In this document: positions 39,759 to 59,979 of the stretch, in pieces
Layout: each line of letters begins with the position of its first letter
Numbering within the stretch: position 1 is the stretch's first letter
Sequence record: PQ341120.1
Strand: one strand, 5' to 3'
DNA from: Escherichia phage EAWsc9
Length of the DNA: 64,000 bases
Position numbers and translations under genes: made by a program
Notes under the pieces: model-generated
The model's input: only the letters and a program-made list of their open reading frames with translations
Told to the model about the DNA's origin: nothing
Database searches by the model: none

Positions 39759-39791
39759 AGTCATTTCCTCAAATTTTATAATCCGTAGGAG

Positions 39792-40566: not shown

Positions 40567-41060
40567 AACTTGATGATTACCTCAACAATATCATCCTGGG
40601 ATAAACCATTCAGGAGGATGTGATTTGTACTGTCAGATGCTGAAATGCGGAACTGATTACCAACTTCATCCGCCATATCATCCTGGGTTAACACTGGATG
40701 TTTAATTCCCAGGCGGTGTTGAAGTGTCAGGGGTTCAACCACAACATAACAAACACATCCATTGATATGTACATTAGGTTGGGTCTGGTTAATGAACACT
40801 TCTGCATCATATTTAACCAAATGGTTCTTTAAGAATTCAACCATTTCAGGAACAGATTCATGCAGTGCTTCTTTCCGCTCTTCTGATTTTTTATCGCGAT
40901 ATTCTTTTTGTTTCGCCTTCAACTTTTTGTTAGAGGCGAGTTTTTTCCGCAGGTCAGTCATAAGACCAATTTTCTTGGTCCCTTTATAGACATAAATTCC
41001 GTCATGACGGTCACCATATTCATTGACAATCATTTCATTTGAAATCAGTTGCATATCCAT
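40557..41060 (-). CDS. alc: Alc, inhibitor of host transcription on cytosine DNA, about 168 aa
   Basis: Internal ATG with GAGGA RBS gives the T4 Alc size (167 aa); synteny between rnlA and the spanins. Confidence 0.85.
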   Translation of the reverse strand: MDMQLISNEMIVNEYGDRHDGIYVYKGTKKIGLMTDLRKKLASNKKLKAKQKEYRDKKSEERKEALHESVPEMVEFLKNHLVKYDAEVFINQTQPNVHINGCVCYVVVEPLTLQHRLGIKHPVLTQDDMADEVGNQFRISASDSTNHILLNGLSQDDIVEVIIKLCK

Positions 41061-41073
41061 AATATTTTCCTCA

Positions 41074-41307
41074 TTAGTAGCGGTTATAACCCCGGGGACC
41101 AAAAGAGTTGGCACCCAGGCGCTCATCTTTCTTTTTGGCTCTTGCTCTAAACCCAGAATCACCTGTTTGAGCTTTCAGTTCTTTTAACAATTTGGCCTTT
41201 AGGTCAGTAATGAAACCAATCCGGCGGTCTCCCTTATAGACATAGATTCCATCATTTCTGTCACCATATGCCTGTGTAACTCTGTCATTTGTAATTAAGT
41301 TTAACAT
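41074..41307 (-). CDS. Hypothetical small protein, about 77 aa, paralog of the Alc N-terminal domain with a basic tail
   Basis: AYGDRNDGIYVYKGDRRIGFITDLKAKL aligns with Alc NEYGDRHDGIYVYKGTKKIGLMTDLRKKL; first ATG of the track ORF is inside the promoter -10. Confidence 0.5.
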   Translation of the reverse strand: MLNLITNDRVTQAYGDRNDGIYVYKGDRRIGFITDLKAKLLKELKAQTGDSGFRARAKKKDERLGANSFGPRGYNRY

Positions 41308-41330
41308 GTTTTGGTCCGCATCAGTAGTTG

Positions 41331-41372
41331 ATGGAACCATTATGTATAGAAAGAAGGGGCTTGTACACCCCT
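41331..41372 (-). promoter_or_regulatory. Early promoter upstream of the Alc-N paralog, overlapping the rnlA terminator hairpin
   Basis: GTGTACAAG -35-like element within the hairpin and CATAATG -10. Confidence 0.35.
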
Positions 41373-41378
41373 TTTTTA
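41352..41378 (-). terminator. Hairpin after rnlA
   Basis: GGGGTGTACAAGCCCC followed by a T-rich tract. Confidence 0.5.
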
Positions 41379-42515
41379 TTATTCAGGAAGGATTACTTCC
41401 GCTTGGTAGTCCGACGGAATGTAAAGTTTATGATTTTTAAGGAAAACCTTATTGATTTGAGCAATCGTTTGTTCAGTTTCCTGTGGGCGTTGATAGGTGT
41501 TCATTAATACGGAGAACAATCCCGGGTATGGTTTACACAACTCTTGGCCTTTAATCGCAAACTCACGACGGTCTTTTCCTGCTAACTGTTTTTGTGCATC
41601 AAGCAACAATCCCAGTGTATTGGACAGATAATCCAGATGCGTTGCAGTAAAGGCAGTAACTTTTTCACGAGCATAAGTATCGCCAGTAAACATGGCAATA
41701 ACATCATCTGCACCGCCAGCAACAACAACTTCAAACAGTCGCTCATTATTATTAATGGAGTCTTTAGTATGATGCAGAGCACAATACCATTCTGTTTTCA
41801 TCTTGAACTTCTGACCGTTAGCCATCTCATAGACGAAGCCTTCAATCTCTTTCATACCACGAACATTCTCAATGGTTGCCGGGTCATATGCTTCAACCAG
41901 GAAAGGACGGAGTGCAGCATCTTTGAACAGTTCCTGATAAGGAACATATTCACCAGTTTCATTATGGCGAACGTTCAGCAAAATCAGGTCACGTTCCTGG
42001 TAAGGCAAAACAATGCGGTTGGTCGGCGCAACATATTCCATGTTGCATGTATAACCAGCTTCAGTGATTTCAGTCACACGAGCCCTGAATGCACTGCGAT
42101 GTTCTTGTTTAAACACCTGCAAGGATTCAGCTGCTTGGGAGCTTTTGATTGACCCCTTTGATTTAAAGGCGATATTAGTCTGGTCCATATAAGTAGAAAC
42201 CAAGCTACCATCAGCTTTTGCAGTAACCAGGACAACCTCATCAAGGTTAAGGTCCATGGTCATTGGATTCTCACCCAGATTAAAGAATTTTTCCATAGGG
42301 CGAGCAGCAATGCGAACTGGACCATTGTCATCCATTTCAAACATAATGCCACGGCACTCCAGCGCATCATCAAGGAGCCAATCACTATAGGAAGCATAGT
42401 TATAGCTAAAGATGCGGAACTTAGTTTCAAATGGAGAAACAAAATCCGTATAGAAAAACTTACCTTTATCAGATTCGGCGCAAAGCTTCATTAAGTTATC
42501 ATATAATTCAATCAT
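41379..42515 (-). CDS. rnlA: RNA ligase 1, 378 aa
   Basis: FRIFSYNYASYSDWLL.DALECRGIMFEMD as in T4 Rnl1; AAGGTGA RBS; ATGA overlap with denA. Confidence 0.95.
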   Translation of the reverse strand: MIELYDNLMKLCAESDKGKFFYTDFVSPFETKFRIFSYNYASYSDWLLDDALECRGIMFEMDDNGPVRIAARPMEKFFNLGENPMTMDLNLDEVVLVTAKADGSLVSTYMDQTNIAFKSKGSIKSSQAAESLQVFKQEHRSAFRARVTEITEAGYTCNMEYVAPTNRIVLPYQERDLILLNVRHNETGEYVPYQELFKDAALRPFLVEAYDPATIENVRGMKEIEGFVYEMANGQKFKMKTEWYCALHHTKDSINNNERLFEVVVAGGADDVIAMFTGDTYAREKVTAFTATHLDYLSNTLGLLLDAQKQLAGKDRREFAIKGQELCKPYPGLFSVLMNTYQRPQETEQTIAQINKVFLKNHKLYIPSDYQAEVILPE

Positions 42516-42922
42516 TTCTTCACCTTATGTTGGTAATTCCACGGGGGATTAAAAAGCTTGATGAACATCGGCTCTTCCAGAGACATCGTTTCGACTGACA
42601 TCGTACCAAGTTCATTGGTCATTGACAGATTGAAACATTGTCGTGCATAGAATACCACCTTTTTGCCTTCTTGTAAAGCTTCATGTATCATCCGGGATTT
42701 GTTTGAATCACTCGTCTGTTCGATTCGGTTAATTGCAGTCCGGTAATAGTTGATACGCTTCTTAAGGTTGTTCGTCTTACCAATATACACTAGTTCATCA
42801 TCAACTGAAATAGCATAGATAACATTTTTCTTGTTTGCGAGAGTAAGGATAGGGATTTTACCATCGACTAACTCTAACTCCGCGTATTTTATAAAACTGT
42901 ATTCGTCAGCGATTTGTTTCAT
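42512..42922 (-). CDS. denA: Endonuclease II (GIY-YIG family), about 136 aa
   Basis: VIYAI...DELVYIGKT.NL.KRINYYR, FYARQCFNLSMTNELGTM as in T4 DenA; ATG two codons inside the TTG-initiated track ORF. Confidence 0.92.
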   Translation of the reverse strand: MKQIADEYSFIKYAELELVDGKIPILTLANKKNVIYAISVDDELVYIGKTNNLKKRINYYRTAINRIEQTSDSNKSRMIHEALQEGKKVVFYARQCFNLSMTNELGTMSVETMSLEEPMFIKLFNPPWNYQHKVKK

Positions 42923-42929
42923 AGACAAA

Positions 42930-42948
42930 AAGGGCCGAAGCCCTTTCC
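42930..42948 (-). terminator. Terminator after nrdB
   Basis: GGGCTTCGGCCC followed by TTTTTG, immediately upstream of the denA start. Confidence 0.6.
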
Positions 42949-44127
42949 TTATAGATATTTACGGAAACCAGCAAGAACGTTCTCATCGACGTCATTGTCA
43001 ATCTGGGCTACCAGGTAAGCAGACAACTCAACTTCTTGTGGTGCTGATTGCACATTATCAGAGTTAAGATATTCGCGAATCCATGGAATCGGGTGCTTAG
43101 TAGATTCTAACACGATTTCACACGGGAGGCCGCATTGCTTCATACGAGAAACCGTCAGGTAATCGATGAACCGGTTAAGAATCTCGACGCTCAACCCAGG
43201 AAGTCCACCATCTTTAAACAGATGCACGGCCCATTCTTTTTCCTGGCGATTAACTTCCATGAAAATGGCTGCGGCTTCTGCTTCGCATTCGTGTGCGATT
43301 TTAACCCATTCGTCACCGTCAACACCAGTCTGCAGCTGACGAAGAATATATTGGGTTCCCTTAAGGTGGAGCTGTTCATCACGGGCGATGAACTTCATTA
43401 TCTTCGCATTACCTTCCATGATTTCCATGTTCTTATGGAAGTTGAAAGTACAGGCAAAAGATACATAAAAACGAATGGCTTCCAGGGCATTAATGACATG
43501 CAGGCAGAGATAAAGAGACTTCATCAATGCTCGTTTGGCGATAGATTCTTGTTTGACAGCTCGTTCCAAACGTTCGTCCGCTTCGGGAGTTTCTTTAGCC
43601 AGTTCAACAAAAGCAATCTGGTTTTGCCATTGACGAGTTTTATTCAGAACATCATCATAGTAATGACCGATGGATTCTGCGCGCTTCATGATTGCATCAT
43701 CTAACAGGATTTCGTCGAATACCTTCGCCGGGTCCGTATAGAGATTTCGCATTATGTGTGTATAAGAACGAGAGTGAATTGTCTCGCTGAATGTCCAAGT
43801 CTGAATCCAGGTATCAAGACTCGGGTCAGAAACTAATGCGGCTAATGCTGCTGCAGGAGCACGACCCTGGATACTATCCAGAAGCGACTGGTATTTCAGG
43901 TTGTTGGTAAAAATATTTTGTTGATGTTCAGGAAGCTTATTAAATTGGGCTCCGTCCATCATCAGGTTTACTTCCTCTGGACGCCAGAAGAATGATAATT
44001 GCTTTTCTGTTAATTCTTCGAAAACTTTATGACGCTGGATATCATAACGGGCAATCCCCAATCCTGAACCGAAGAACATTGGCTCGGCTAAAACATCCAC
44101 CGGAGTGGTATTAAAAACTGTACTCAT
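42949..44127 (-). CDS. nrdB: Ribonucleotide reductase small subunit, 392 aa, uninterrupted
   Basis: Di-iron/tyrosyl radical protein of R2 length; continuous ORF with GAGGAA RBS; no intron. Confidence 0.96.
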   Translation of the reverse strand: MSTVFNTTPVDVLAEPMFFGSGLGIARYDIQRHKVFEELTEKQLSFFWRPEEVNLMMDGAQFNKLPEHQQNIFTNNLKYQSLLDSIQGRAPAAALAALVSDPSLDTWIQTWTFSETIHSRSYTHIMRNLYTDPAKVFDEILLDDAIMKRAESIGHYYDDVLNKTRQWQNQIAFVELAKETPEADERLERAVKQESIAKRALMKSLYLCLHVINALEAIRFYVSFACTFNFHKNMEIMEGNAKIMKFIARDEQLHLKGTQYILRQLQTGVDGDEWVKIAHECEAEAAAIFMEVNRQEKEWAVHLFKDGGLPGLSVEILNRFIDYLTVSRMKQCGLPCEIVLESTKHPIPWIREYLNSDNVQSAPQEVELSAYLVAQIDNDVDENVLAGFRKYL

Positions 44128-44165
44128 TTTATTTCCTCAATAGCTCATCCATGAGCATAATTATA

Positions 44166-46421
44166 TCAAAGTTTACAGGCAGAGCAGTCTTCTGCTTTAG
44201 GAGCTTCGATTTCGTAATCGTCTGTACCAGAACCATCTCTAGTGTTATGATAATAAAGGTTTTTACCACCAAAATACCAGAAGTACATCAAGTCGTCAAG
44301 CATAACTGACATCGGAACTTTTCCTTTCGGATAATTCTGCGGGTCGTAATAGGTATTGGCTGATGCTGACTGGCAAATCCATTTCAACATAATCGCGACT
44401 TGGGTCAGATAAGGTTTGTTACCTTGCTTAGCTAATACCCATGCGTAATCGTACAATCCTTTATTGTGCTCGATATTTGGAACAACCTGGTTAAAAGAAC
44501 CTTCTTTACTTTCCTTGATACTTACTGGACCGCGCGGAGGTTCGATACCGTTTGTAGAGTTGGAAACTTGACTGCTCGACTCGCAAGGCATGAGCGCAGA
44601 TAAGGTGCTATTACGGATGCCGTGTGCAACCAGGTCTTCCCGCAGCTGCGCCCAGTCACAAACGTAGTTTGGAGCTGCGATTTGGTCAATCTTTTTATTG
44701 TACCAGTCGATAGGTAATTCGCCTCGAGCCCAACGAGTGTCTGAATAATATTCGCAAGGTCCTTTTTCTTTGGCGAGCTTAATTGATGCACGGATAAGGC
44801 CATATTGCAATCTCTCAAATAGTTCATGCGTTAAATCGTTTGCATCGGCATAGGAAGCGAAATTGCTTGCCAACCATGCAGCATAGTTAGTAACCCCGAC
44901 ACCCAAGTTGCGGCGTTTTTTGGCTTTCAGAGCTTCTTTAACCGGATAACCCTGGTAGTCCAACAGATTATCAAGAGCACGAACTTGTACTTCGGCCAGC
45001 TCGTTAATTTTATCTTGGTCTTGCCAGTCAAAACTATCCAGAACAAATGCAGACAATGTACACAATCCAATTTCAGCATCTTCGCTGTTCACATCAGCGG
45101 TCGGGATTGCAATTTCGCAGCAAAGGTTTGATTGACGAATTGGAGCCTTATCGCGGATGAACGGAGTGTAGTCATTCACGTTATCAACGAACTGTGGATA
45201 AACGCGGGCTGTACCGGAACGTTCGGTCATGAATAATTCAAATAAATCTTTTGCTTTGATGCGCTTCTTACGAACCGTCGGGTCTTTTTCCAAGGCTTCA
45301 TATAACTCGCGGAATTTATCCGGGTTATCAAAATATGAATAATACAATTCACCGCCAGCTTCGTGCGGACTAAACAGAGTGATGTAATCATTCTTAGCCA
45401 GTCGTTCCATCATCAGGTTATTCAGCTGGACACCATAGTCCATATGTCTGATGCGGTTTTCTTCAACGCCCTTGTTGTTCTTCAGAACGAGTAAATTTTC
45501 AACTTCCAAATGCCAAATAGGATAATAAGCAGTAGCAGCGCCGCCACGGATTCCACCTTGTGAACATGATTTAACAGCCGTTTGGAAATGTTTCCAGAAC
45601 GGAATAACACCAGTATGCTTGACTTCACCCATGCCAATCTTAGAACCTTCGGCACGAATCATGCCAACGTTGATGCCGATACCTGCACGCTTACTGATAT
45701 ATTCGATGATTGAGTTAGCAGTCTTATTGATTGACTTCAGGGAGTCCGCAGCTTCGATAACCACACACGAACTGAACTGTCTTGTAGGTGTTCTGGCGCC
45801 CGCCATGATAGGTGTGGGCAACGAAATCTGCTGCGTAGATACTGCATCATAAAAACGGCAAATGTGCTTCAGACGGTCCGTTGGTTCATCCTGGTGCAGT
45901 GCCATGCCGATGGCCATGATAGCGAACTGTGGAGTCTCATAGATTTTCCCAGTGGTTTTATCTTTAACCAGGTATTTCTCTTTAAGCTGCATCGCGCCTG
46001 CATAAGTCAGGTCAAAATCGCGTTCGTGCTTAATACGAGATTCCAGGTAAGTAATCTCTTCAGCTGAGTAGCTTGACAACAGCTCTGGGTCATATTTACC
46101 TTCATTAACACAATAAGAAATCTGGTCAATAAAAGAACGTGGCTCAAACTGGCCATAAACATCTTTACGCAGAGCAAACATCGTAGCTTTGGCTGCAACA
46201 TATTGGTAATCTGGTTCTTCAACCGAAATAAGCCCAGCGGATACTTTGATGATAACCGTCTGAATATCGCGAGTAGTCATGCCATCGCGCAGATGTGGTT
46301 TGATTGTTTCGTATAATTCATACGGGTCGATATTAGTTCCTTCACATGACCAGGAAAGAACTTTAATAATTTTCTGGCCATCAAAATCTTGAGATACACC
46401 ACTACTTTTTTGTACTTGCAT
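44166..46421 (-). CDS. nrdA: Ribonucleotide reductase large subunit, 751 aa
   Basis: Class I RNR alpha length and motifs (e.g. SNLCCEI); GAGGAA RBS. Confidence 0.97.
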   Translation of the reverse strand: MQVQKSSGVSQDFDGQKIIKVLSWSCEGTNIDPYELYETIKPHLRDGMTTRDIQTVIIKVSAGLISVEEPDYQYVAAKATMFALRKDVYGQFEPRSFIDQISYCVNEGKYDPELLSSYSAEEITYLESRIKHERDFDLTYAGAMQLKEKYLVKDKTTGKIYETPQFAIMAIGMALHQDEPTDRLKHICRFYDAVSTQQISLPTPIMAGARTPTRQFSSCVVIEAADSLKSINKTANSIIEYISKRAGIGINVGMIRAEGSKIGMGEVKHTGVIPFWKHFQTAVKSCSQGGIRGGAATAYYPIWHLEVENLLVLKNNKGVEENRIRHMDYGVQLNNLMMERLAKNDYITLFSPHEAGGELYYSYFDNPDKFRELYEALEKDPTVRKKRIKAKDLFELFMTERSGTARVYPQFVDNVNDYTPFIRDKAPIRQSNLCCEIAIPTADVNSEDAEIGLCTLSAFVLDSFDWQDQDKINELAEVQVRALDNLLDYQGYPVKEALKAKKRRNLGVGVTNYAAWLASNFASYADANDLTHELFERLQYGLIRASIKLAKEKGPCEYYSDTRWARGELPIDWYNKKIDQIAAPNYVCDWAQLREDLVAHGIRNSTLSALMPCESSSQVSNSTNGIEPPRGPVSIKESKEGSFNQVVPNIEHNKGLYDYAWVLAKQGNKPYLTQVAIMLKWICQSASANTYYDPQNYPKGKVPMSVMLDDLMYFWYFGGKNLYYHNTRDGSGTDDYEIEAPKAEDCSACKL

Positions 46422-46454
46422 GTTTTCCTCTATAGTTCAAAAGGGTTGGGAACC

Positions 46455-46700
46455 TTAAATTGTCTCTGGTAGTTCCGAAGTCATTTCATCATTATATTCT
46501 TCTTCTGACTGGACAGTGATGTCAAAATATGACTGGACGTCACCGGCTGAATCATGACAGTAGACACGTTCATGTCGTTTGGCCAGAAATTTGATTCCGT
46601 CAATAGTGATATAAGAATTTGGCGCAGGTAAATCTTGTTCGGTAAATTGTGGCATTTCAAAAATGACTTCGCCTGACTGGCGTTTAAATCGTAAATTCAT
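46455..46700 (-). CDS. Hypothetical protein, 81 aa
   Basis: GAGAGGAA RBS; promoter-like TATAAT upstream. Confidence 0.6.
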   Translation of the reverse strand: MNLRFKRQSGEVIFEMPQFTEQDLPAPNSYITIDGIKFLAKRHERVYCHDSAGDVQSYFDITVQSEEEYNDEMTSELPETI

Positions 46701-46759
46701 AATTTCCTCTCATTAAATTTTAAATAATTATATCACAGTGCCCTGAAGCGGAATCGTAT

Positions 46760-47059
46760 TTATGCGCCCAAATCCTCGAGCGAAAAGGTGTCTTTGAAAA
46801 GTTTGTTAACGACCAGAGCGATAACATCGCCATGACATGCTTTCGGTTTGCATGTACACGCTAATCGCATTCCGCGAAGGGTTTCAAGGTGTTCTCTTTT
46901 GATTTCACCCGATTTAATCTTTGCTATGAAATATTCTTTAAAGTTCTTTATGTTTTCTTCTCGGGTACCATCTTTGTATGGATTTCCCCACATGGTACCC
47001 CGTTGAATATTCACATCAAAGTCGGATTGATATTTGTTAACAACCCGACAGGCTTTCAT
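46760..47059 (-). CDS. Hypothetical Cys/His-containing protein, 99 aa
   Basis: WGNPY ... CTCKPKACHGDVI motif suggests a small metal-binding fold; nrdA-td intergenic block. Confidence 0.6.
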   Translation of the reverse strand: MKACRVVNKYQSDFDVNIQRGTMWGNPYKDGTREENIKNFKEYFIAKIKSGEIKREHLETLRGMRLACTCKPKACHGDVIALVVNKLFKDTFSLEDLGA

Positions 47060-47120
47060 AGTAGGAAGTTAAGCCCAACCATTACGACCAAAAACAAAAT
47101 ACCGGCAATTTGAATTTTCA

Positions 47121-47317
47121 TTAGACCTCGACAATAAACCAGATAGTCCGATTGAAATCATCATATTCATATGATTTAATCACGCGCATAACATAAAGTT
47201 CTTTACCCTGAACAAAAATAGTTGTTTTCTCTTTAGGCAGTTCATCGAGACTTATATTCATTTTTTCAAACAGCACCTCATTGGTGCTGTATCTATTGTT
47301 TACTATACGAATATTCA

Positions 47318-47318
<1 letters not shown>
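47121..47318 (-). CDS. Hypothetical protein, 65 aa
   Basis: TAATG overlap with the td stop. Confidence 0.55.
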
Positions 47319-49094
<1,776 letters not shown>

Positions 49095-49104
49095 TATATT
49101 TTCC

Positions 49105-49344
49105 TCACGCTTTCTTGGCAACTTTCCAGTCAGCTTTAAATTGGTCAACGTCAGAGTGATGAATCCAGAAACCAGATGAGCTACCATCTTCATAAAGAGG
49201 ACAACCATCGCACTCATCTTTCCAACCCATCGCGCATAAAGTTTCTTCAGCTTTTTCCAGAGCTTCTGGATTGTTACCCTGGATTGTAAAGTACCATTTG
49301 CCTTTAACTTCTGAATCTTTGATGCTTTCACGTTGTAATTTCAT
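49105..49344 (-). CDS. Hypothetical protein, 79 aa
   Basis: GGAG RBS and early promoter upstream; Cys-containing (CAMGW.DECDGC). Confidence 0.6.
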   Translation of the reverse strand: MKLQRESIKDSEVKGKWYFTIQGNNPEALEKAEETLCAMGWKDECDGCPLYEDGSSSGFWIHHSDVDQFKADWKVAKKA

Positions 49345-49383
49345 TTTATTCTCCAGTTTTATTTGGTAGCTCAGTATGGGACC

Positions 49384-49412
49384 ATTATGTCATAGCCCCA
49401 TTTGGTTGTACA
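49384..49412 (-). promoter_or_regulatory. Early promoter for the 49105..49344 gene
   Basis: TGTACAA ... CATAAT, leader GGTCCCATACTGAG...GGAGAATAAAATG. Confidence 0.4.
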
Positions 49413-49419
49413 CTACTTT

Positions 49420-49674
49420 TTAAATTTTATCAAGCCATTTGCCAAGTTTAATCATTTCCTTAGTGGCTTTTTCCATACTTCTGAACTTAACTAATAAAGG
49501 ATATGTATCTACACCCATAACAAGATTGGTTGCAAGGCTGTGCTCACCCACAAGCCATAATGAGTAGGTTTGAACATCCAGACCATAATTTCTGTCTTTA
49601 TGCAAACGCACACCCATCACTTCAAATTGTTCACTGGCTTTTTCCACTGCATCCAGGAAATCATCTTTAGTCAT
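49420..49674 (-). CDS. Hypothetical protein, about 84 aa
   Basis: ATG four codons inside the TTG-initiated track ORF; follows the upstream stop. Confidence 0.55.
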   Translation of the reverse strand: MTKDDFLDAVEKASEQFEVMGVRLHKDRNYGLDVQTYSLWLVGEHSLATNLVMGVDTYPLLVKFRSMEKATKEMIKLGKWLDKI

Positions 49675-49675
49675 A

Positions 49676-50107
49676 TTAGACCCCAAAAGTTGCTTTAATC
49701 AGTGCAATGACTTCTGCCGCATTTTTATGATTTACCTGCACATGAATGGTTTGGGTATCAACAGGTGCATCGCCATCAACTTCTGCCGCATTTTTATGAT
49801 TTACCTGCACATGAATGGTTTGGGTATCAACAGGTGCATCGCCATCAACTTCCAGGAAGTGACAGAATTCCCATCCAGCGAGTTCAAAGTACTCATCAGC
49901 ACCACCCATACTATTCAGGATGGTGCCATCTTTCATTTCAACTTTTTCAACAAAATAATCACCTTCAATATAACACATATCCAGGACTTTGAAGGAATTG
50001 CCATGTTGTTCCATCAACCTGACCATGCACGAATTGTCATCAGGACTATCAGCGATGAATTGTTTTTTGGCAGCGGGGTCTAATACGTAAAATTTACCAG
50101 TTTCCAT
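49676..50107 (-). CDS. Hypothetical protein, 143 aa, containing a perfect 23-aa tandem repeat
   Basis: GAGGAA RBS; internal duplication EVDGDAPVDTQTIHVQVNHKNAA x2. Confidence 0.6.
   Translation of the reverse strand: METGKFYVLDPAAKKQFIADSPDDNSCMVRLMEQHGNSFKVLDMCYIEGDYFVEKVEMKDGTILNSMGGADEYFELAGWEFCHFLEVDGDAPVDTQTIHVQVNHKNAAEVDGDAPVDTQTIHVQVNHKNAAEVIALIKATFGV
49712..49849. repeat. Perfect 2 x 69-bp tandem direct repeat inside a CDS
   Basis: Two identical copies of TTCTGCCGCATTTTTATGATTTACCTGCACATGAATGGTTTGGGTATCAACAGGTGCATCGCCATCAAC, in frame. Confidence 0.9.
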
Positions 50108-50166
50108 TTTAATTTCCTCATATTCAATTGAGGGAACATATTATCATGTCCCCGTTTGTTTGTATA

Positions 50167-50394
50167 CTAAGCTTCAATCAAATTCATATAAAATTTAGTG
50201 TCTTCAGGGTACATACCATCACAATATTCATTTTGCATAAAGCGGGTAATGTCTTCAAGAGGACCTTGGACTTCAATTTGAATACCAAAGACTTCAGTAT
50301 CTTTAATGTAAGTCATACACAAAGAAGGATAACGATTGCGGATAACTTCGTAAGTGTATTCAAAATCAACGATATCAATATTAACCTTAGCCAT
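50167..50394 (-). CDS. Hypothetical protein, 75 aa
   Basis: GAGGAAAATAAA-ATG leader. Confidence 0.6.
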
Positions 50395-50456
50395 TTTATT
50401 TTCCTCATGTAGTTGATAGGTCTATAATATCTCAGCCATAGACCTGTTGTAAACTG

Positions 50457-50819
50457 CTATTTGAAAGCTTTTTGTAGAAGTTCAATGATTTGGTCGACGT
50501 TATTAGCATCCACAACACAATTAATAGAAACCGCTCCTGAAGGTGTTTTTGCATAACTAGAGTATTCACGGAAGCAATAAAACTCTTCTTCACTAAGTTC
50601 AAAATAATCATCACCCATGCCATCATCATTATAGATTGCACCATTAGCACAAATGATTTCGGTTACATAATCATAGCCATCTGCGCTTGATATTGATTTA
50701 ACTTCAAACCAACCACCATTTTCTTGGATGATGTCGACCATATTAGCATTTGATGAACTAATATCAATGAAAGATTTAATACGATGCGGGTTGAACTCAT
50801 ATTTTTTGCCGATTTCCAT
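50457..50819 (-). CDS. Hypothetical protein, 120 aa
   Basis: GAGGAA RBS and early promoter upstream; N-terminus resembles that of the 143-aa protein (M..GKKYEF / M.TGKFYVL). Confidence 0.6.
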   Translation of the reverse strand: MEIGKKYEFNPHRIKSFIDISSSNANMVDIIQENGGWFEVKSISSADGYDYVTEIICANGAIYNDDGMGDDYFELSEEEFYCFREYSSYAKTPSGAVSINCVVDANNVDQIIELLQKAFK

Positions 50820-50856
50820 TTTTATTTCCTCAGTTGTTATCAGTAGTTGATGGAAT

Positions 50857-50886
50857 CATTATGCCTTAGCTCAAAGGGCTTGTACA
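50857..50886 (-). promoter_or_regulatory. Early promoter for the 50457..50819 gene
   Basis: GTGTACAAG ... CATAATGATTCCATCAACTACT leader, GAGGAA RBS. Confidence 0.4.
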
Positions 50887-50904
50887 CTACTTTTTGAAAA
50901 TAAA

Positions 50905-50930
50905 AAAAGGGACCCGAAGGTCCCTTTATA
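50905..50930 (-). terminator. Terminator after gene 32
   Basis: GGGACC-TTCG-GGTCCC followed by TTTTTTTATTTT on the minus strand. Confidence 0.75.
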
Positions 50931-51842
50931 TTAAAGGCCAGCCAGGAGGTCGTCAAGACCATCATCGGAAGGCTCTGGAGTGCTTGGAGCAGTCGCAGTG
51001 CGTTCAGACTTAGCAGGTTTGCTGGAAGTGAAGTCTTCCATATCTTTATCGAAATCGTCCAGGTCAGCGCCCAGTTTATCGGCTTGTGCAGCAGCTTTAG
51101 AAGCAGCGCCGCCGAGAGCGGCCGTACCCATTACTTTAGAGAATTTCTTCTGATTCTCTTCAAGGGATTTAAACACCAGCAATTCATTCAGGTCAGACAT
51201 TTCGTCCCAAAGTTTTTTCTGGAATGCTTCATCATTGATACCAGCGATTTCGGACTGGTTCATGAATTTGGAATCATCGTAGTTTTTATAACCGGAAACC
51301 AGTTTAGATTTCAGTACAAAGTTTGCACCTTCAAAAGGACAAGTTACATCAATAGCTGTTTCGCCCATGTCAACATCGACTTCAACCATCTGGTTAATTT
51401 TGTCCATGATTTTCTTGCCGAAGCGATATTTGAATACTTGACCTTCGTTAGACGGAACAGCAGGGTCTTTAATGACCAGGATGTTAGCCCAGTAAGAAGT
51501 ATTACGCTTCAGTTTACGATATTCGGATTCGTTTGTATTGTACAGGTCATTCTTATTCATGTACGCACACACAGGACAGTTTTCATAGTCGCCGTGAGTA
51601 GAAGTACAGTTTTCAATATACCATTGACCGCCATTTTTAAAGCCGTGGTTAACGAGCTTGATGAACGGAGATGGATTTTCTTCATTTTTGGAAGGCAGGA
51701 AACGAATAACCGCAGAGCCGACGCCATCAGTATCTTTCAGTTTCCATTCTTTTTTATCGTCAGAAGAGAAACCGGAACCACCTTTCAGGGCGTTAAGGGA
51801 AGCAGCCAGGTCAGCAGGGTTTTTACGTTTAAACATAGACAT
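50931..51842 (-). CDS. 32: Single-stranded DNA-binding protein, 303 aa
   Basis: FKRK...FSS.DK.EWKLK...AVIRFLPSK, zinc-binding Cys/His region, acidic C-terminus ...LDDLL as in T4 gp32. Confidence 0.96.
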
Positions 51843-51902
51843 ATGATTTTCCTTAGATTATTTGATTTTTAGCAGTTGTTTTGATTACGTATTAATTATA
51901 CT
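51843..51902 (-). promoter_or_regulatory. Gene 32 5' leader / probable translational autoregulation operator
   Basis: AT-rich unstructured leader (AAUAAUACGUAAUCAAAACAACUGCUAAAAAUCAAAUAAUCUAAGGAAAAUCAU) upstream of the gene 32 ATG, as in the T4 gene 32 operator. Confidence 0.4.
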
Positions 51903-52571
51903 TCAAAGTGCTTGAAGCGTTATTTGACAGTTTTTAACGGTCTCGATGAACAATTTACGAGCTTCAAGAGAATCTATATTTAAGATTTTCTTATAGGCAT
52001 TTAGTTTGGTTGAATACTTTTCCCAAACCAAGTCGTTAGTCTGCTCATCATGTTTATTTATAATATCTAAAAATGAATCAAGCAAACAAAACGTTTCAAA
52101 TGAGATAACATTCGATTGGAGAAGTTTGAAAATATAACTTGTGTTTACTTTAGTATTATACTCGAAAATCTCTTGAAGCGATTTGACTTCGACTTTCTTA
52201 CTGAAGTAATAGATATTCTTTATATCATCTTCGTATACTTGTTTAATTCTTTTAAGTCTGCCAATGTATTCTCGATAAAATATCAGAGCATCGGCATCGC
52301 TTATATCACCTATCCATGCATCCTGGTTCGCGACCAGGTTTGACATGAATATTAACGTTAATTCTTTGAGAGTGTACTTATCACTAAGCTTTTCGAAAAA
52401 ATACTTATCGCGACGTTTTTGATAAGCACTGTCGGAGATTCGCATGGTCCAGTTATATTTGATAATATCATAACGACCCGAAAAATGCTGTTTGATGGAT
52501 AAGTATAGTTGATATACTGATTTACCATTTATATATCGGTTGTTATTTGGAGGCATGCGAATCGTAATCAT
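51903..52571 (-). CDS. 59: Helicase loading protein, 222 aa
   Basis: DGKSVY.LYL.IKQH..GKYD.IKYNW, NLVANQDAWIGDISDADAL.FYREYIGRLK as in T4 gp59; ATGA overlap with gene 33. Confidence 0.93.
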   Translation of the reverse strand: MITIRMPPNNNRYINGKSVYQLYLSIKQHFSGRYDIIKYNWTMRISDSAYQKRRDKYFFEKLSDKYTLKELTLIFMSNLVANQDAWIGDISDADALIFYREYIGRLKRIKQVYEDDIKNIYYFSKKVEVKSLQEIFEYNTKVNTSYIFKLLQSNVISFETFCLLDSFLDIINKHDEQTNDLVWEKYSTKLNAYKKILNIDSLEARKLFIETVKNCQITLQAL

Positions 52572-52861
52572 AACAAAAAGTCCAGCGTATTAGTTTTCTG
52601 TGTACGAGACATACTCGGACGAAGCAGGTTATCATCATAGGCTTCGTTCATAATCTTATCAATGATTCCCGCAGGAATGTATCGCGCAAAATTACCTTCA
52701 GGAATTCCACGTTCTTCCAACCAGGCAGTCGCAGCTTCCAGATAAGACATTTCAGTTGACTCAACCATGGCTTCAATATCAAGCCCGTTTTGCTGCTTAC
52801 TAATCGCCCCGGAAGGCGATTCAGTTTTCTGTGTATCGAAATTAACTAAAGAGGACATCAT
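52568..52861 (-). CDS. 33: Late transcription accessory protein, about 97 aa
   Basis: Synteny between dsbA and 59; internal ATG with GGAG RBS chosen (the track ORF extends further into dsbA). Confidence 0.75.
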   Translation of the reverse strand: MMSSLVNFDTQKTESPSGAISKQQNGLDIEAMVESTEMSYLEAATAWLEERGIPEGNFARYIPAGIIDKIMNEAYDDNLLRPSMSRTQKTNTLDFLL

Positions 52862-53111
52862 AGAGCTCCACAGCTTCGGTTTTTTCATCTTCAAAACGTT
52901 CACGAGTGCCTTTATGATACAGGCCGAGCTGTGTATTGAACATCTTACCGTCAACGCCTAATTCAGTTTTTGCCTTATCTTTAAGGTCTTTAATTTCGTC
53001 TGCATATGCTTCCATTTTTAATTTGGTATCGGAAGCAGCTTTAATCAGCTTGGCTAGCTCAGCACCATGAGTATCAGGACAAAATTCAACTTTCACTTTT
53101 TTCTCTTTCAT
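52842..53111 (-). CDS. dsbA: Double-stranded DNA-binding protein, 89 aa
   Basis: Same size as T4 DsbA (89 aa) and same position between rnh and 33. Confidence 0.85.
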   Translation of the reverse strand: MKEKKVKVEFCPDTHGAELAKLIKAASDTKLKMEAYADEIKDLKDKAKTELGVDGKMFNTQLGLYHKGTRERFEDEKTEAVELYDVLFS

Positions 53112-53119
53112 AATATACC

Positions 53120-54064
53120 TTAATAAAATTCAGCAATATTTGCAGTTAGTTTAGACAGACCAGACTTAACAAAGTAAGGATAAACTTTACTTTTGGCTGG
53201 GATAACGTAGTTATTATATCGTTCTAAGATTGAAGCGGATATTTCCGTTGGGATAAAGTCCATATCAATCAACAATTGGTTTTCACAGAATCTATTATAT
53301 TGCTCTTCTGTTAAAAGCGTTTTCAAAACGTCATGGTCGTAATAGTTGAGTGCAATTTGTTCAAGCTCAGCAGCGCGGGTCGGTGGAGTGCGTTCACCTT
53401 CTTCACGAGTGTAATAAAAATCACCGCGAACCTTGATGCTTGACACGTTATCTTTTTTGTCGCCTTTAACAACCTTTGTCACGCAATCCATAAGAGCATC
53501 GCCTGATTTAGTTTTGACATATTTTTTCTGCATCGGTGACCATTGTTTCACCCCAGGGAATTTATGTAACTGGGTAAAGTCGCCATCTGAAGAAACAATC
53601 ATAACCGGATGCCCGAGACCAGTGAGCAACTTCGTTAATACTGCAATATGGTCGTCAGCCTCAATTTTATCCATATTCATCACGATGTAAGGCATATGTT
53701 TTTCCATTTCATCAATGATGATATGCATGGCAGCGTGTAGACCTTCCCAATCAAATTGTGACTCTTCACGAGCTTTTGCACGGTTTTTCTTATAATAATA
53801 AGATTTCGTGCGTCGCCAATAACCATTCTTCGAATTATCAACACAAATAATTGGGACTGTATAACCGAGCTTTTTAAACTGTACAATGTTTTTTCTGATA
53901 GAGTTCAGAACCAGATGTCTGGTCATTGCAGTTGTTACTTTCGGAAAGCCTGCGTCTTTGCCGAATTCCTGGAAGGCTGCTGCCATGATAAGCTGGCTAA
54001 AATCGAGTAACAGAAAACCATCTTTTTGACGGTCTTCTTCAGGGAGTAAAAAATCTAAATTCAT
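53120..54064 (-). CDS. rnh: RNase H (5'-3' exonuclease / flap endonuclease), 314 aa
   Basis: GYWRR...YYYKKNR.KAREES.WDWEG, ADDHIAVL, SSDGDFTQLHK as in T4 RNase H. Confidence 0.95.
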   Translation of the reverse strand: MNLDFLLPEEDRQKDGFLLLDFSQLIMAAAFQEFGKDAGFPKVTTAMTRHLVLNSIRKNIVQFKKLGYTVPIICVDNSKNGYWRRTKSYYYKKNRAKAREESQFDWEGLHAAMHIIIDEMEKHMPYIVMNMDKIEADDHIAVLTKLLTGLGHPVMIVSSDGDFTQLHKFPGVKQWSPMQKKYVKTKSGDALMDCVTKVVKGDKKDNVSSIKVRGDFYYTREEGERTPPTRAAELEQIALNYYDHDVLKTLLTEEQYNRFCENQLLIDMDFIPTEISASILERYNNYVIPAKSKVYPYFVKSGLSKLTANIAEFY

Positions 54065-54121
54065 ATGAACCTCTGTTCAATTAGTTGACTCGATTATATT
54101 AGCATAAAAATTTTAAAGCAA

Positions 54122-54129
54122 TATAAATA
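54122..54129 (+). promoter_or_regulatory. Late promoter TATAAATA for gene 34
   Basis: Exact motif about 32 nt upstream of the ATG. Confidence 0.6.
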
Positions 54130-54160
54130 CACATATACCAAATCAATAAGGATAAAGCAC

Positions 54161-57100
54161 ATGGCCGATATTTTAAAACCAGCATTCAGAGCAACATCCG
54201 GTCTCGATGCTGCTGGTGAGAAAGTCATTAATGTCGCAAAAGCTGATTACTCAGTTTTATCAGACGGCGTTAACGTAGGTTTCTTTATAGAAGAAAACAC
54301 AGTTCAACAATATGATGCAACACGCGGATACAAAAAGAACTTTGCAGTTATTAATGATAACCGTATTTGGGTTGCTCAACGTGATATTCCGGCACCAGCT
54401 GGAGCATTTACCCCTCAGTATTGGTTAGCAACTCGTACTGACCCGAAATGGGAAACTGTTGCATCTCCAACTCGTCAGCTTAGCTCCGGTGAATTTATCG
54501 CAGTCGACTCAGCTGCAAGCTTTACCACATTTACATTGCCTCCGAACCCGACTGATGGTGATACCATCGTTATTAAAGATATCGGCGGTAATACCGGTTA
54601 TAATGAAATTAAAATCCAGTCAAGCAACGTGCCTGGCCAAGGTAACCAAAAGATTGTTCGCTTTGGTAATCAGTATTCAGAAGTTTTAATTACCAAACCA
54701 TTCTCTTATAACATGCTTATCTTTTCAAACCGCTTATGGCAATTTTGGGAAGCAGGTAACGAAGAACGTGGTATCAGAGTAGAACCGTCGACCGGACGTT
54801 TCCATGCACAAGCTGGCGACTTTATTATGCGTCGTTATACAACTGGTGCACCGATTACTTTCATTCTTCCTAAGTATGCAAACCAGGGTGATATTGTCAA
54901 ATCTGTTGATATCGATGGCATGGGGCCAACGTTCCACCTGATGGTTGAAACCTTTGACACCAGTTCCAGTCTTGGGAAAGCTGGCCAGCATCAAATGGAA
55001 TTCCGTACCACAGGTGATGGTTTCTTCGTTTATAATGCTGCCGAAAAACTCTGGTATGTTTGGGACGGTGATTTTAAAACTCGTCTTCGCGTTATTCGCG
55101 ACAGCGTTAAACTTTTACCAAACGAAAGTGTCATTGTATTTGGCGAAGATAACTCAACTCCGGCAACGATTAATATCGATTTGCCAACTAATGTTTTGCA
55201 AGGCGATATTGTTAAGATTGCGCTGAACTATCTCCGTAAATCGCAGACTGTTAATATAAGAGCTGCTGTTGGCGATAAGATTGCAACTGACATTAAATTG
55301 CTGCAATTCCCTAAACGTTCCGAGTATCCACCAGATACAACTTGGGTGATGGTTGATTCATTGACCTTTAATGGCAACATCAGTTATACTCCGGTTATTG
55401 AATTATCATATGCAGAAGATGCAGTGTCTGGAACAAGTTATTGGGTTGTCGCTCAGAACGTCCCGACTGTCGAACGAGTTGACTCATTAAATGATTCCAC
55501 GCGTACACGTCTTGGTGTTATTGCTCTGGCAAACCAGACTCAGGCAAACGTTGACCATGAAAATAACCCAGAAAAAGAACTCGCAATTACCCCTCAGACT
55601 TTAGCCAACCGTGTTGCTAAAGAGAACCAACGAGGCATTGCCAGAATCGCAACGACTGCCCAAGTAAATCAGAACAGTGATTTTGCATTTGTTGATGATG
55701 TAATTATTTCTCCGAAAAAACTCAATGAACGTACGGCAACAGAAACGAGACGTGGGCTCGCAGAACTCGCCACACAGCAAGAAACCAATGCGGGTGTAGA
55801 TGATACCACAATTATAACTCCAAAGAAACTGCAAGCTCGCCAGGGCTCAGAATCGCTATCTGGTATTGTAACTTACGTTTCAACGACTGGTGCAACTCCT
55901 GCCGCTTCGCGTGAATTAAATGGTACAAACGTTTATAATAAAAATACGGTTAATCTGGTTGTTTCTCCGAAAGCTCTTGACCAGTACAAAGCTACTTACA
56001 CTCAGCAAGGCGCGGTTATTCTTGCGGTTGAAAGTGAAGTAATCGCTGGTACTTCTCAATCTGGCTGGGCAAACGCAGTCGTTACTCCAGAAATGTTGCA
56101 TCGCAAAACTGCTCTTGATTCCCGTATCGGTTTAATCGAGATTGCTACTCAGGTTGAAACAGATGCAGGAACCGATTATACCAGAGCTGTGACTCCTAAA
56201 ACGTTAAATGACCGTAAAGCATCAGAAACGTTAACCGGCATAGCCGAGATTGCTACGCAATCAGAATTTGATACTGGAACTGATGATACTCGTATCTCAA
56301 CTCCATTAAAAATTAAAAATAGATTTAATAATACTGCTCGTACTTCTGTTAATGCATTAAGTGGTTTAGTAGAAACAGGGACGCTCTGGGACCATTATAG
56401 CCTGAATATTCTTGAAGCAAATGAGACTCAGCGTGGCACAGCAAGATTAGCAACTCAGGGTGAAGTCAATACTGGCACTGACGATAAAACAATCGTTACT
56501 CCGCTTAAATTGATGTCGAAAAAAGCCACTGAAAACGCCGAAGGTATTGTTCGCATCGCGACAAACGCAGAAGCAACAGCAGGCACATCAAAAGTCTTGG
56601 CCATTAGTCCGTCTGCGCTGAAATATATTGCCCAAACGGAAACAACTTGGGAAGCATCTGAAACACTGCGTGGATTTGTTCGTTTATCTTCCGGTGCAGC
56701 TACTTCGGCCGCAACTACAACGACGGGCGCGGGATTTACATATGAAAATGGTGTGTATACCCCGGACCCAAGTAAACTGGTTAGCTATGCGAAATCTGGA
56801 TATGCAGTTTCGCCTTACGAATTAAACCGCGTATTGCAAAACTTCTTACCGATAAATGCGATGGCTGTTAATGCTGAAAAACTGGATAACCTCGATTCGA
56901 CCCAGTTTATTCGTCGTGATATTGCTCAGACTGTTGAAGGTGTATTAACCCTTACTAAGCAGACAAATATATCTGCTCCGGTTGTATCGACGAGCACTGC
57001 GGTGTTTACTGATGTAACGGCTGGTACTTCGACGTTCGGAACTGTGAATGTTGTTAATGGAACTAACAAGTGGAAAATCACTGCTCCTTCCACCGGAACG

Positions 57101-58117
57101 ACAATGACTATTGGTGATACGACTAACGTATTGACATTAAACACCGCCTCGGGTAATGCTGCAGTATTGAACAACCTTAGCGCCGGAAATGATGTTCAAG
57201 CCAAAAATAATTACGTTCTAAATGGTCGTACTATCGCAACCACGACGGGTGAAGTTTCTGGTGCAACTTTGTCTCTGGGTGATAACTCACAGAATTTAGT
57301 GCTCAAAACTCTTGATGCTGGTAATATCATAGCAAATGGTGGCGGTGCATTTAAAGTTCTGACCGAGAAAAACGCAGTAGAAATTGTTGATAGAAACTTT
57401 GTTAACCAGGCTGGTGATACAATGTCTGGTGTACTCCGTGTGAATGCTCCAGTCCGTGTATTCGGTACGAAACCAAGTCTTATCGCACAAGCTCCGACTG
57501 CGGATACTGTTGGTTTCTGGTCTGTCGATATCAATGATGAACCGACTTATAGCCAGTTCCCTGGTTATTGGACAATGAAGTTAAAACGTCAAGTAAACAT
57601 TGATACGGTTCAAACTAAACCTGCTGGGGTAACTGATGAAGTTTGGAATGCTTCTGGTTGGTTAACTGAAAACGGAACTTTTGCCTCGCCCGCTATTCGT
57701 TATCGTACTGATGATGGTACACTCGGTGATGAAGTATTAGGTAGCTCCGGACAGAAACTGCGCGGAACCTGGTTTGACTATTCAGTTCGTGATAAACAAA
57801 TTAAATATCCTGGTACATTGACTCAGTTTGGTAATACGCTAGATTCGTGCTATCAAGATTGGGTTTGTTATCCAACTGGATTGAACGGTGGTACTATTCG
57901 TTATACTCGTACATGGCAGAAAAATAAATCAGCATGGACGACTTTCGCAATGGTTTACACCGCGGATAACCCTCCGTCTGCAGAGGATGTTGGTGCATTA
58001 CCGGCTGACAACACAACGATGGGGAACTTAACCATTCTTGATTGGTTACGTATCGGTAACGTGCGTATCATCCCAGACCCGACCACTAAATCCGTTAAGT
58101 TTGAATGGATTGAATAA
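54161..58117 (+). CDS. 34: Long tail fibre proximal subunit, 1318 aa
   Basis: Size and position (after rnh, before 35); internal repeated segments typical of gp34; TATAAATA about 30 nt upstream. Confidence 0.95.
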   Translation: MADILKPAFRATSGLDAAGEKVINVAKADYSVLSDGVNVGFFIEENTVQQYDATRGYKKNFAVINDNRIWVAQRDIPAPAGAFTPQYWLATRTDPKWETVASPTRQLSSGEFIAVDSAASFTTFTLPPNPTDGDTIVIKDIGGNTGYNEIKIQSSNVPGQGNQKIVRFGNQYSEVLITKPFSYNMLIFSNRLWQFWEAGNEERGIRVEPSTGRFHAQAGDFIMRRYTTGAPITFILPKYANQGDIVKSVDIDGMGPTFHLMVETFDTSSSLGKAGQHQMEFRTTGDGFFVYNAAEKLWYVWDGDFKTRLRVIRDSVKLLPNESVIVFGEDNSTPATINIDLPTNVLQGDIVKIALNYLRKSQTVNIRAAVGDKIATDIKLLQFPKRSEYPPDTTWVMVDSLTFNGNISYTPVIELSYAEDAVSGTSYWVVAQNVPTVERVDSLNDSTRTRLGVIALANQTQANVDHENNPEKELAITPQTLANRVAKENQRGIARIATTAQVNQNSDFAFVDDVIISPKKLNERTATETRRGLAELATQQETNAGVDDTTIITPKKLQARQGSESLSGIVTYVSTTGATPAASRELNGTNVYNKNTVNLVVSPKALDQYKATYTQQGAVILAVESEVIAGTSQSGWANAVVTPEMLHRKTALDSRIGLIEIATQVETDAGTDYTRAVTPKTLNDRKASETLTGIAEIATQSEFDTGTDDTRISTPLKIKNRFNNTARTSVNALSGLVETGTLWDHYSLNILEANETQRGTARLATQGEVNTGTDDKTIVTPLKLMSKKATENAEGIVRIATNAEATAGTSKVLAISPSALKYIAQTETTWEASETLRGFVRLSSGAATSAATTTTGAGFTYENGVYTPDPSKLVSYAKSGYAVSPYELNRVLQNFLPINAMAVNAEKLDNLDSTQFIRRDIAQTVEGVLTLTKQTNISAPVVSTSTAVFTDVTAGTSTFGTVNVVNGTNKWKITAPSTGTTMTIGDTTNVLTLNTASGNAAVLNNLSAGNDVQAKNNYVLNGRTIATTTGEVSGATLSLGDNSQNLVLKTLDAGNIIANGGGAFKVLTEKNAVEIVDRNFVNQAGDTMSGVLRVNAPVRVFGTKPSLIAQAPTADTVGFWSVDINDEPTYSQFPGYWTMKLKRQVNIDTVQTKPAGVTDEVWNASGWLTENGTFASPAIRYRTDDGTLGDEVLGSSGQKLRGTWFDYSVRDKQIKYPGTLTQFGNTLDSCYQDWVCYPTGLNGGTIRYTRTWQKNKSAWTTFAMVYTADNPPSAEDVGALPADNTTMGNLTILDWLRIGNVRIIPDPTTKSVKFEWIE

Positions 58118-58125
58118 GAGGTAAT

Positions 58126-59256
58126 ATGGAAAAATTTATGGCAGAGTTTGGACAAGGATACGTCCAAACGCCAGTTATATCAGAAAATAATGCCGTTAAA
58201 TTTAAAATGAGTATAGCAGGGAGCTGTACTCTTTCCACGGTGAAATCGTATATCAAATTTCAGGATGAACGAATTGGACCAACTACTTTTGGTAATGGTC
58301 TGACTCTATTGGAAATTGATACAACTACGAATAAAATTGTTAACACGAAAAACTATTCATTAACTAGCACACACGATGCAATCAGTCAGGCATTAATCAC
58401 CTTTGTGGAATCTGTTCCAGCCGGAAGATTGATTGCTTTTATTTCTTCAGGGAAACTAAATGCATCACAGACATTAATTGATTGGTTCCGTAAATGTGGT
58501 TCAAGAGCATTCCCGGAGAAATGGCTGATTGATAAAGTTGATACATCGTACTCGGCCTTTTATATAACCGGCCGGAATGTAATTGTTTCGGAGCATGTTA
58601 AGTATAATGACGGGAAGTTAGTTGAGGATGTTTCGACTCCGCTTGAAGTCATTTATGATACCTTTAGTGATATAGGAGCAACAGGCTATCCTGTACGCAT
58701 AACGGAAGACGAGAGCACGTATTCATCAACAGGTGATGGAACATCAACCACAATTAAAAGGTTCCCCACAGAGGACCTGGTGACTCCTATGGACACCTAT
58801 AACCTTTTACCTTTGGATGTGCTTTACTTGAAGTTTCAGATGTCATTTGACGCTGCACTGAAAGCTGCGGGGACCGTAAGGACTTCGATTCGATTCTTTA
58901 AAAGCCCCAGCACTTCTCCGATATCAAATACGAACATCGATATTGCAGCAAACGTTCCTGCCGGGGCTTGGGCGAGTTTCGAAAGATATGTCGAGATTCC
59001 GCCAGGAGCTGATGGCTTTACAGTAGTAACATCAAGAACTGTAGCTACCGGAACTGGGTCAATACGCAATATTGTTATTGGTGAGATAACCAGAGGTGAC
59101 TCGGCATTCAAACCAGCTGAATTTGGTGTCAACGGCATAAGGATGTCATATGCAAACGATACAACAAATACAGGCAATACAATTGTAACATTCCCGGATG
59201 CACAAGCTCCGAGAGCCGGCAAGATATACGCAGCCGAACTACGAGAAAAACAATAG
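58126..59256 (+). CDS. 35: Long tail fibre hinge (knee) protein, 376 aa
   Basis: Size and synteny with T4 gp35; AAGAGG RBS; terminator follows. Confidence 0.9.
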   Translation: MEKFMAEFGQGYVQTPVISENNAVKFKMSIAGSCTLSTVKSYIKFQDERIGPTTFGNGLTLLEIDTTTNKIVNTKNYSLTSTHDAISQALITFVESVPAGRLIAFISSGKLNASQTLIDWFRKCGSRAFPEKWLIDKVDTSYSAFYITGRNVIVSEHVKYNDGKLVEDVSTPLEVIYDTFSDIGATGYPVRITEDESTYSSTGDGTSTTIKRFPTEDLVTPMDTYNLLPLDVLYLKFQMSFDAALKAAGTVRTSIRFFKSPSTSPISNTNIDIAANVPAGAWASFERYVEIPPGADGFTVVTSRTVATGTGSIRNIVIGEITRGDSAFKPAEFGVNGIRMSYANDTTNTGNTIVTFPDAQAPRAGKIYAAELREKQ

Positions 59257-59279
59257 GACTCTTCGGAGTCCTTTTTTCG
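59256..59279 (+). terminator. Terminator after gene 35
   Basis: GGACTC-TTCG-GAGTCC followed by TTTTTT. Confidence 0.75.
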
Positions 59280-59280
59280 T

Positions 59281-59288
59281 TATAAATA
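59281..59288 (+). promoter_or_regulatory. Late promoter TATAAATA for gene 36
   Basis: Exact motif directly after the terminator that follows gene 35. Confidence 0.6.
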
Positions 59289-59323
59289 CAAAATATCATA
59301 TGCCGGTTGAAGAGGACTTATAA

Positions 59324-59971: not shown

Positions 59972-59979
59972 GAGGCATT

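Follow-up and report, generated by a model that had tools for sequence, protein, structure and literature searches.

A 69-bp in-frame tandem duplication, very probably heritable, in an Frd.2-family paralog of a T4-like Escherichia phage

In Escherichia phage EAWsc9 (PQ341120.1) a small gene of the Frd.2 family contains a 69-bp segment twice, back to back. Our analysis covered a stretch of 64,000 nucleotides of this genome, referred to as the window. Taken together, the comparisons presented here make it very probable that the feature is a genuine, heritable in-frame tandem duplication in an Frd.2-family paralog, formed once, via slippage or unequal recombination, in an ancestor shared with phage pEC-M719-6WT.2. 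Events of this kind are well known in T4-like phages; the 69-bp instance is undescribed but ordinary and has already been deposited in GenBank unremarked.

A preliminary description of the window, made from the sequence alone, had noted a perfect 69-bp in-frame duplication with two copies in the 143-aa ORF 49676..50107. Tandem Repeats Finder and a script both confirmed it (Table 1). The former reported the array at 49710..49852 with a period of 69, 2.1 copies, 100% matches, 0 indels and a score of 286. According to the script, the period-69 identity spans exactly 49710-49852, corresponding to 2 x 69 + 5 bp, and the range given originally (49712..49849) is the same array in another phase. Both tools agree that 49710..49778 equals 49779..49847 and that the two abut head-to-tail with a spacer of 0. 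The script places the start of copy 1 in codon phase 0 (gene nucleotide 256); the duplication is therefore in frame, and the peptide EVDGDAPVDTQTIHVQVNHKNAA is encoded twice, as residues 86-108 and 109-131. The number of such 74-nt period matches expected by chance in 64 kb is about 10^-33. With Tandem Repeats Finder the array far outscores any other tandem repeat of the 64-kb window, the runner-up reaching a score of 64.

Table 1. Coordinates of the duplication, its carrier gene and the surrounding genes in the window
Feature	Position	Strand	Evidence
Tandem duplication, perfect, 2 x 69 bp + 5 bp of a third unit	49710..49852	-	Tandem Repeats Finder; script
Copy 1 in coding order; gene nt 256-324, residues E86-A108	49784..49852	-	script
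Copy 2 in coding order; gene nt 325-393, residues E109-A131; equal to copy 1 in the window	49715..49783	-	script
GAAGT microhomology at the 5' edge of copy 1; plus strand ACTTC	49848..49852	-	script
GAAGT at the novel junction between the copies	49779..49783	-	script; allele comparison
GAAGT 3' of copy 2, then C (GAAGTC); end of repeat identity	49710..49714	-	sequence; script
Carrier gene, 143-aa Frd.2-family paralog, Pfam FRD2; relatives 120-124 aa	49676..50107	-	PF03197 match; phrog_622
Second FRD2 gene, 120 aa, unduplicated, T4 frd.2 ortholog	50457..50819	-	PF03197 E 1.4e-35; 77% to T4 Frd.2
frd.3 homolog, between the two FRD2 genes	50167..50394	-	PF05798 Phage_FRD3 E 1.6e-34
td	47318..48178	-	ORF list / Pfam
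frd	48175..48756	-	ORF list / Pfam
DUF5417 / frd.1 homolog	49105..49344	-	ORF list / Pfam
gene 32	50931..51842	-	ORF list / Pfam

Besides the 69-bp array, the script found only one exact repeat of at least 30 nt in the window. This 35-nt stretch is common to two tandem paralogous ORFs on the plus strand (10366..11646 and 11647..12930; 426 and 427 aa) that share ~65% nucleotide identity and are both annotated as 'capsid vertex protein' in pEC-M719-6WT.2. Located at 11512 and 12799, close to the 3' end of each ORF, it may represent a gene-conversion patch. Tandem Repeats Finder also listed a degenerate tandem array at 60175..60238 with a period of 18 bp, ~3 copies and 67-68% matches.

The product of the duplicated gene matches PF03197 with an E value of 3.5e-33 and 114.6 bits (cut-off 29), the profile match falling into two stretches that are split by the duplication, and it matches phrog_622 with an E value of 5.6e-33. 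A Shine-Dalgarno motif GAGG is located 8 nt 5' of its ATG. Since the product is 31% identical to T4 Frd.2, too low for a T4 frd.2 ortholog, versus 77% for the product of the neighbouring gene 50457..50819, sequence comparison identifies the duplicated gene as a divergent Frd.2 paralog absent from T4 and the neighbour as the T4 frd.2 ortholog. The records of JS98 and SP18 annotate the FRD2 pair as frd.2a / frd.2b, and the nearest phage records of the window are Gaprivervirus-type Tevenvirinae. The initial view of a small early accessory gene is upheld in so far as the gene is small, accessory and situated in the T4 frd-32 interval, and PMC12152347 calls T4 Frd.2 an early protein.

Several further features of this neighbourhood were recorded. 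Between the duplicated gene and frd.1 lies an ORF of 88 aa on the minus strand (49420..49686) without a Pfam match that matches phrog_4423 only (unknown function, E 1e-47); no gene is annotated at the equivalent place in T4. Directly 3' of gene 32 and ahead of the FRD2 ortholog, a strong terminator-like hairpin, AAAGGGACCTTCGGGTCCCTTT, is followed by a T-run (50906..50927, minus strand). A stem-loop with a 9-bp stem, GGGGACAUG-AUAA-UAUGUUCCC (-11.4 kcal/mol, z -1.8), occupies the intergenic position ~50131..50153 on the minus strand, just 5' of the ribosome-binding site of the duplicated gene. Scanning 48700..51000 for promoters and terminators revealed nothing specific to the repeat. In Yersinia phage vB_YenM_P8 (PP693301.1), the single-copy Frd.2 paralog (region 1879..2241) is labelled 'endonuclease VII' and the FRD3 homolog (region 2302..2529) 'ssDNA binding protein'. 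Both names are probably mis-annotations, judging from the Pfam matches of the window homologs, which give neither name.

Published work on the family, as far as the relevant passages of PMC12152347 are concerned, predicts for T4 Frd.2, GoF and MotB.1 an N-terminal LSm/SH3-like five-stranded barrel, which comprises residues 1-88 in T4 Frd.2, followed by a flexible linker and a small C-terminal domain. The same passages describe an effect on RNA stability in T4 for the mutant GoF(D25Y) only, none with wild-type GoF or MotB.1, and report none for Frd.2. Evidence on the dispensability of T4 frd.2 is mixed: amber mutants are stated to plate normally (PMC12152347), whereas in a T4 CRISPRi-ART screen frd.2 was the only gene among those of unknown function that scored 'Fit' (PMC11879866). 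A search of the PDB by sequence retrieved nothing meaningful, the top match being cytochrome c3 with E = 1.

The same duplication is present in pEC-M719-6WT.2 (OQ845958.1; sewage, China), whose circular record is split by its origin. Direct BLAST yielded 97.2-97.9% identity over window 6698..62240 (~55 kb) with ~1,400 mismatches, by which pEC-M719-6WT.2 is the closest relative of the window and yet clearly a separate isolate and a separate assembly. The two genomes show 258 differences in 44000..56000 and 3 in 49000..50000, and 2 of the latter (49718 and 49796) fall within the repeat. In pEC-M719-6WT.2 the two codons read CAC and GCG in copy 1 but CAT and GCC in copy 2, whereas both copies of the window have CAT and GCG. 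The two inter-copy differences of pEC-M719-6WT.2 (CAC/CAT, GCG/GCC) are at third codon positions and both are synonymous; CAC is also found in the single-copy allele of MN01 and GCC in that of UPEC07. The pEC-M719-6WT.2 allele (WMU95648.1) thus resembles that of the window in the duplication, the junction and a protein that is identical from the common ATG (143 aa). It differs in the two synonymous sites and in its annotation as a 'hypothetical protein' of 156 aa from an upstream start, which is due to a differing upstream intergenic sequence (a cluster of 8 differences, 50122..50157). Outside the repeat, the allele of the two phages is distinguished from three aligned single-copy alleles by GAT, AGG, GGTGCT, GCTGGA and GTCATTGCACTG. 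A literature search on pEC-M719-6WT returned one passing mention and none of the gene, and no published mention of the duplication was found.

The duplicated allele is real but rare, pEC-M719-6WT.2 being the sole further carrier among 50,697 phage records. When 1.2 kb around the gene were compared with these records, 199 matched and 43 covered at least 80% of the query. Only pEC-M719-6WT.2 gave a full-length colinear match among the 199 and, among the matches listed, the next 17 full-coverage records spanned ~69 bases less, consistent with a single copy. In the alignment, pEC-M719-6WT.2 has the same duplication at the same position and YenM_P8, MN01 and UPEC07 have one copy, so that the copy-number comparison with sister isolates proposed in the preliminary description gives two in pEC-M719-6WT.2 and one in the other relatives compared. 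A 90-nt query centred on the junction found an unbroken match in pEC-M719-6WT.2 alone, 1 of 25 matching records; the other 24 were without the junction. All 32 clusters of the family in a large protein collection are 118-124 aa in length and none contains the duplication; the nearest cluster has 11 members of 120 aa, one of 121 aa and one of 156 aa, the last being pEC-M719-6WT.2 with its upstream start. The proposal of a length-variable gene is not borne out by these data: apart from the duplicated allele, the family is tightly confined to 118-124 aa. A degenerate pattern of the junction, AAAAATGCNGCNGAAGTTGATGGNGATGCNCC, had 0 matches in IMG/VR viral contigs, GTDB genome contigs and JGI metagenome contigs. 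An exact look-up in a collection of 15 billion proteins found the 143-aa form absent under that start and the 156-aa annotation of pEC-M719-6WT.2 alone present.

Comparison of single-copy and duplicated alleles points to the way in which the duplication was formed. In 10 of 10 single-copy alleles, GAAGTT stands at the 5' end of the unit and GAAGT(T/C) at its 3' end, and these bracketing repeats encode two Glu-Val dipeptides. The script located GAAGT in the window at gene nucleotides 256, 325 and 394, one of them at the novel junction. Repeat identity stops after GAAGT because the 3' flank reads GAAGTC; this flank, GAAGTCATTGCACTGATT, is also found in the single-copy allele L009. Copies without a spacer, a direct repeat that brackets the unit and recurs at the junction, and single-copy relatives together form the classical signature of slippage or unequal recombination at microhomology, and we infer this mechanism. 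The occurrence of GAAGT at both unit ends and at the junction thus lends support to the replication slippage or unequal recombination suggested from the outset. The duplication would have arisen by replication slippage or unequal (illegitimate) recombination between two direct repeats GAAGT(T) of 5-7 bp. In its product, which keeps the frame, the acidic inter-domain linker EVDGDAPV and the highly conserved C-terminal segment DTQTIHVQVNHKNAA are present twice. Hairpin-promoted slippage was considered separately and is unsupported: folded as single-stranded DNA, the repeat shows no unusual structure (z = +1.6).

T4 is known to undergo tandem amplifications and deletions by recombination at microhomologies of 6-10 bp, after which one copy of the microhomology stays between the repeats (PMC9391042). 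Like the microhomology duplications of T4 (rII; the dmd-tifA amplification, Srikant et al. 2022, PMC9391042), the one described here is head-to-tail and spacerless and occurs in the same phage group, and a short direct repeat flanks the progenitor unit, with one copy remaining at the junction. However, the T4 cases involve whole genes or kilobase segments, whereas here 69 bp within one gene are duplicated and the frame is preserved. The microhomology measures 5-7 bp as compared to 'typically 6-10 bp' in T4 (PMC9391042), and in contrast to the laboratory-selected T4 cases the duplication is inherited in natural isolates.

The likely consequence for the protein was assessed with AlphaFold2 models of the 143-aa protein (pLDDT 83) and of the 120-aa protein of MN01 (pLDDT 89). 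The two models agree in their N-terminal elements (strands 6-9, 38-47, 50-58, 63-65 and 84-87; helices 11-20 and 22-35) as well as in the C-terminal helix, and in both the block of residues 1-87 has a pLDDT of 86-96. The 143-aa model exhibits the LSm-like fold, with a predicted bent five-stranded antiparallel N-terminal β-sheet (SH3/LSm-like), a linker and a C-terminal domain. The duplicated unit begins exactly where the N-terminal domain ends and consists of the acidic linker followed by DTQTIHVQVNHKNAA, a C-terminal strand that is at least 90% conserved across the family and its most conserved element. As modelled, neither the predicted N-terminal SH3/LSm-like barrel nor the C-terminal helix is altered by the duplication. 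Both copies appear in the 143-aa model as 10-residue strands (96-105 and 116-125, pLDDT ~62), and the single copy of the 120-aa monomer model is unassigned as strand, which suggests, at low confidence, a mutual pairing of the two copies in the 143-aa protein.

Length variation in this part of the protein is seen elsewhere in the family. The ortholog encoded by 50457..50819 has 120 aa versus 128 aa in T4 Frd.2 (L007:1644-2030), and a 7-residue gap between the barrel and the C-terminal domain identifies the linker as the family's length-variable part. The most likely effect of the duplication is a tolerated, roughly neutral lengthening of this already length-variable linker region, and we infer that the duplicated protein still works. 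Compared to the family as represented by PF03197 and by the members treated in PMC12152347, a 23-residue internal duplication is found in no other member except pEC-M719-6WT.2. The duplicated allele of both phages also has R30 and G79, two positions at which at least 90% of relatives carry K and E; relaxed constraint would be one possible explanation, co-adaptation with the duplication another.

Building on a single ancestral duplication, one could propose adaptive remodelling, in which selection favoured the doubled C-terminal strand because it alters the oligomeric state or partner binding. For example, the two strands might pair in cis and replace an intermolecular strand pairing. Such a function would agree with the inclusion of the most conserved part of the family, DTQTIHVQVNHKNAA, in the duplicated segment, with the models in which both copies but not the single copy form strands, and with the description of the relatives GoF and MotB.1 as migrating as monomer and dimer (PMC12152347). 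That both inter-copy differences of pEC-M719-6WT.2 are synonymous and that the allele persists in two diverged isolates would be compatible with it as well. Still, we consider adaptive remodelling unlikely: the inserted region is modelled with a pLDDT of only ~62, selection can hardly be demonstrated from just two synonymous changes, the allele is rare, and R30 and G79 fit relaxed constraint equally well. Decidedly unlikely is the more specific claim that the duplication would be a selected architectural change of a host-takeover protein, altering the oligomeric state or the partner/RNA binding of an LSm-like protein. If true, it would provide a natural handle on the role of the Frd.2 C-terminal domain.

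With regard to age, parsimony applied to the two carriers favours a single origin in the ancestor common to the window phage and pEC-M719-6WT.2. One duplication in this ancestor would have produced identical copies with T..G at both variable sites. The window phage would have kept this ancestral state in both copies, and in pEC-M719-6WT.2 each copy would have changed once, via mutation or patchy recombination with other alleles. The opposite direction, in which the window pair derives from a diverged pair like that of pEC-M719-6WT.2 by deletion and re-duplication, was rejected. An unequal crossover between C..G and T..C gives T..C, C..C and C..G but never T..G. As T..G is unreachable from the pEC-M719-6WT.2 pair, identical copies that diverged later are the simplest direction. 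Zero divergence between the copies had originally been taken to indicate a very recent event; instead, the duplication appears to date back at least to the ancestral locus that both phages have in common. The probability of 0 differences between 69-bp copies is 0.23 at regional divergence and 0.92 at local flank divergence, and zero divergence is therefore unremarkable at such depth. The excess of differences inside the 138-bp repeat (2 of the 3 in 49000..50000) is borderline (Fisher p = 0.05) and could be a weak hint that the repeat was shaped not by simple descent but by gene conversion or by recombination with other alleles.

Alternatively, the duplication of the window isolate might be a very recent de novo event and that of pEC-M719-6WT.2 an independent one at the same microhomology hotspot. 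This recurrence would fit the zero divergence of the window copies. Moreover, every allele retains the GAAGT direct repeat, which could allow the event to happen again, and T4 readily makes such rearrangements (PMC9391042). Yet the two carriers are mutual closest relatives with a common distinctive allele outside the repeat, and zero differences are expected at that depth. The duplication is also absent from the other ~40 full-length relatives in the phage collection, from the 32 protein clusters and from the three contig collections, and hence it is not an event that recurs frequently. Recurrence is therefore quite improbable in our view.

The preliminary description had also raised an assembly artefact, i.e. 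an assembler wrongly turning one 69-bp segment into two, and the perfect identity of the window copies would fit this explanation. An assembly duplication should be absent from independent relatives and have identical copies. OQ845958.1, however, holds the duplication at the same nucleotide position in an independent assembly that differs at ~1,400 positions, and its copies differ from each other at 2 bases, unlike an artefactual copy. In addition, the array of 143 bp should fit into one short read, and assemblers would usually be expected to collapse rather than expand tandem repeats. We regard an artefact as very improbable.

A contingency or phase-variable repeat, in which copy number switches often to modulate the gene, would be suggested by a tandem repeat within the coding sequence of an accessory gene, but is hardly credible given that a unit of 69 bp (23 codons) is a multiple of 3 and cannot switch the frame, that only 1 or 2 copies are seen, both carriers having exactly 2 and all others 1, and that the single-stranded repeat lacks unusual secondary structure (z = +1.6).

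Taken alone, a single heritable duplication of this size has little importance: it belongs to the textbook type of microhomology duplication and affects a small accessory gene. It does represent a clean natural intragenic duplication in T4-like phages, with copies that are identical in one lineage and starting to diverge in a sister lineage. The analysis also clarifies the annotation of the region: of the two FRD2 genes in the window, it is the paralog, not the T4 frd.2 ortholog, that carries the duplication. For the Frd.2/GoF/MotB.1 family of LSm-like proteins, the finding implies that the boundary between the linker and the C-terminal part tolerates an insertion of 23 residues, which is useful for the design of Frd.2 tags and for domain dissections.
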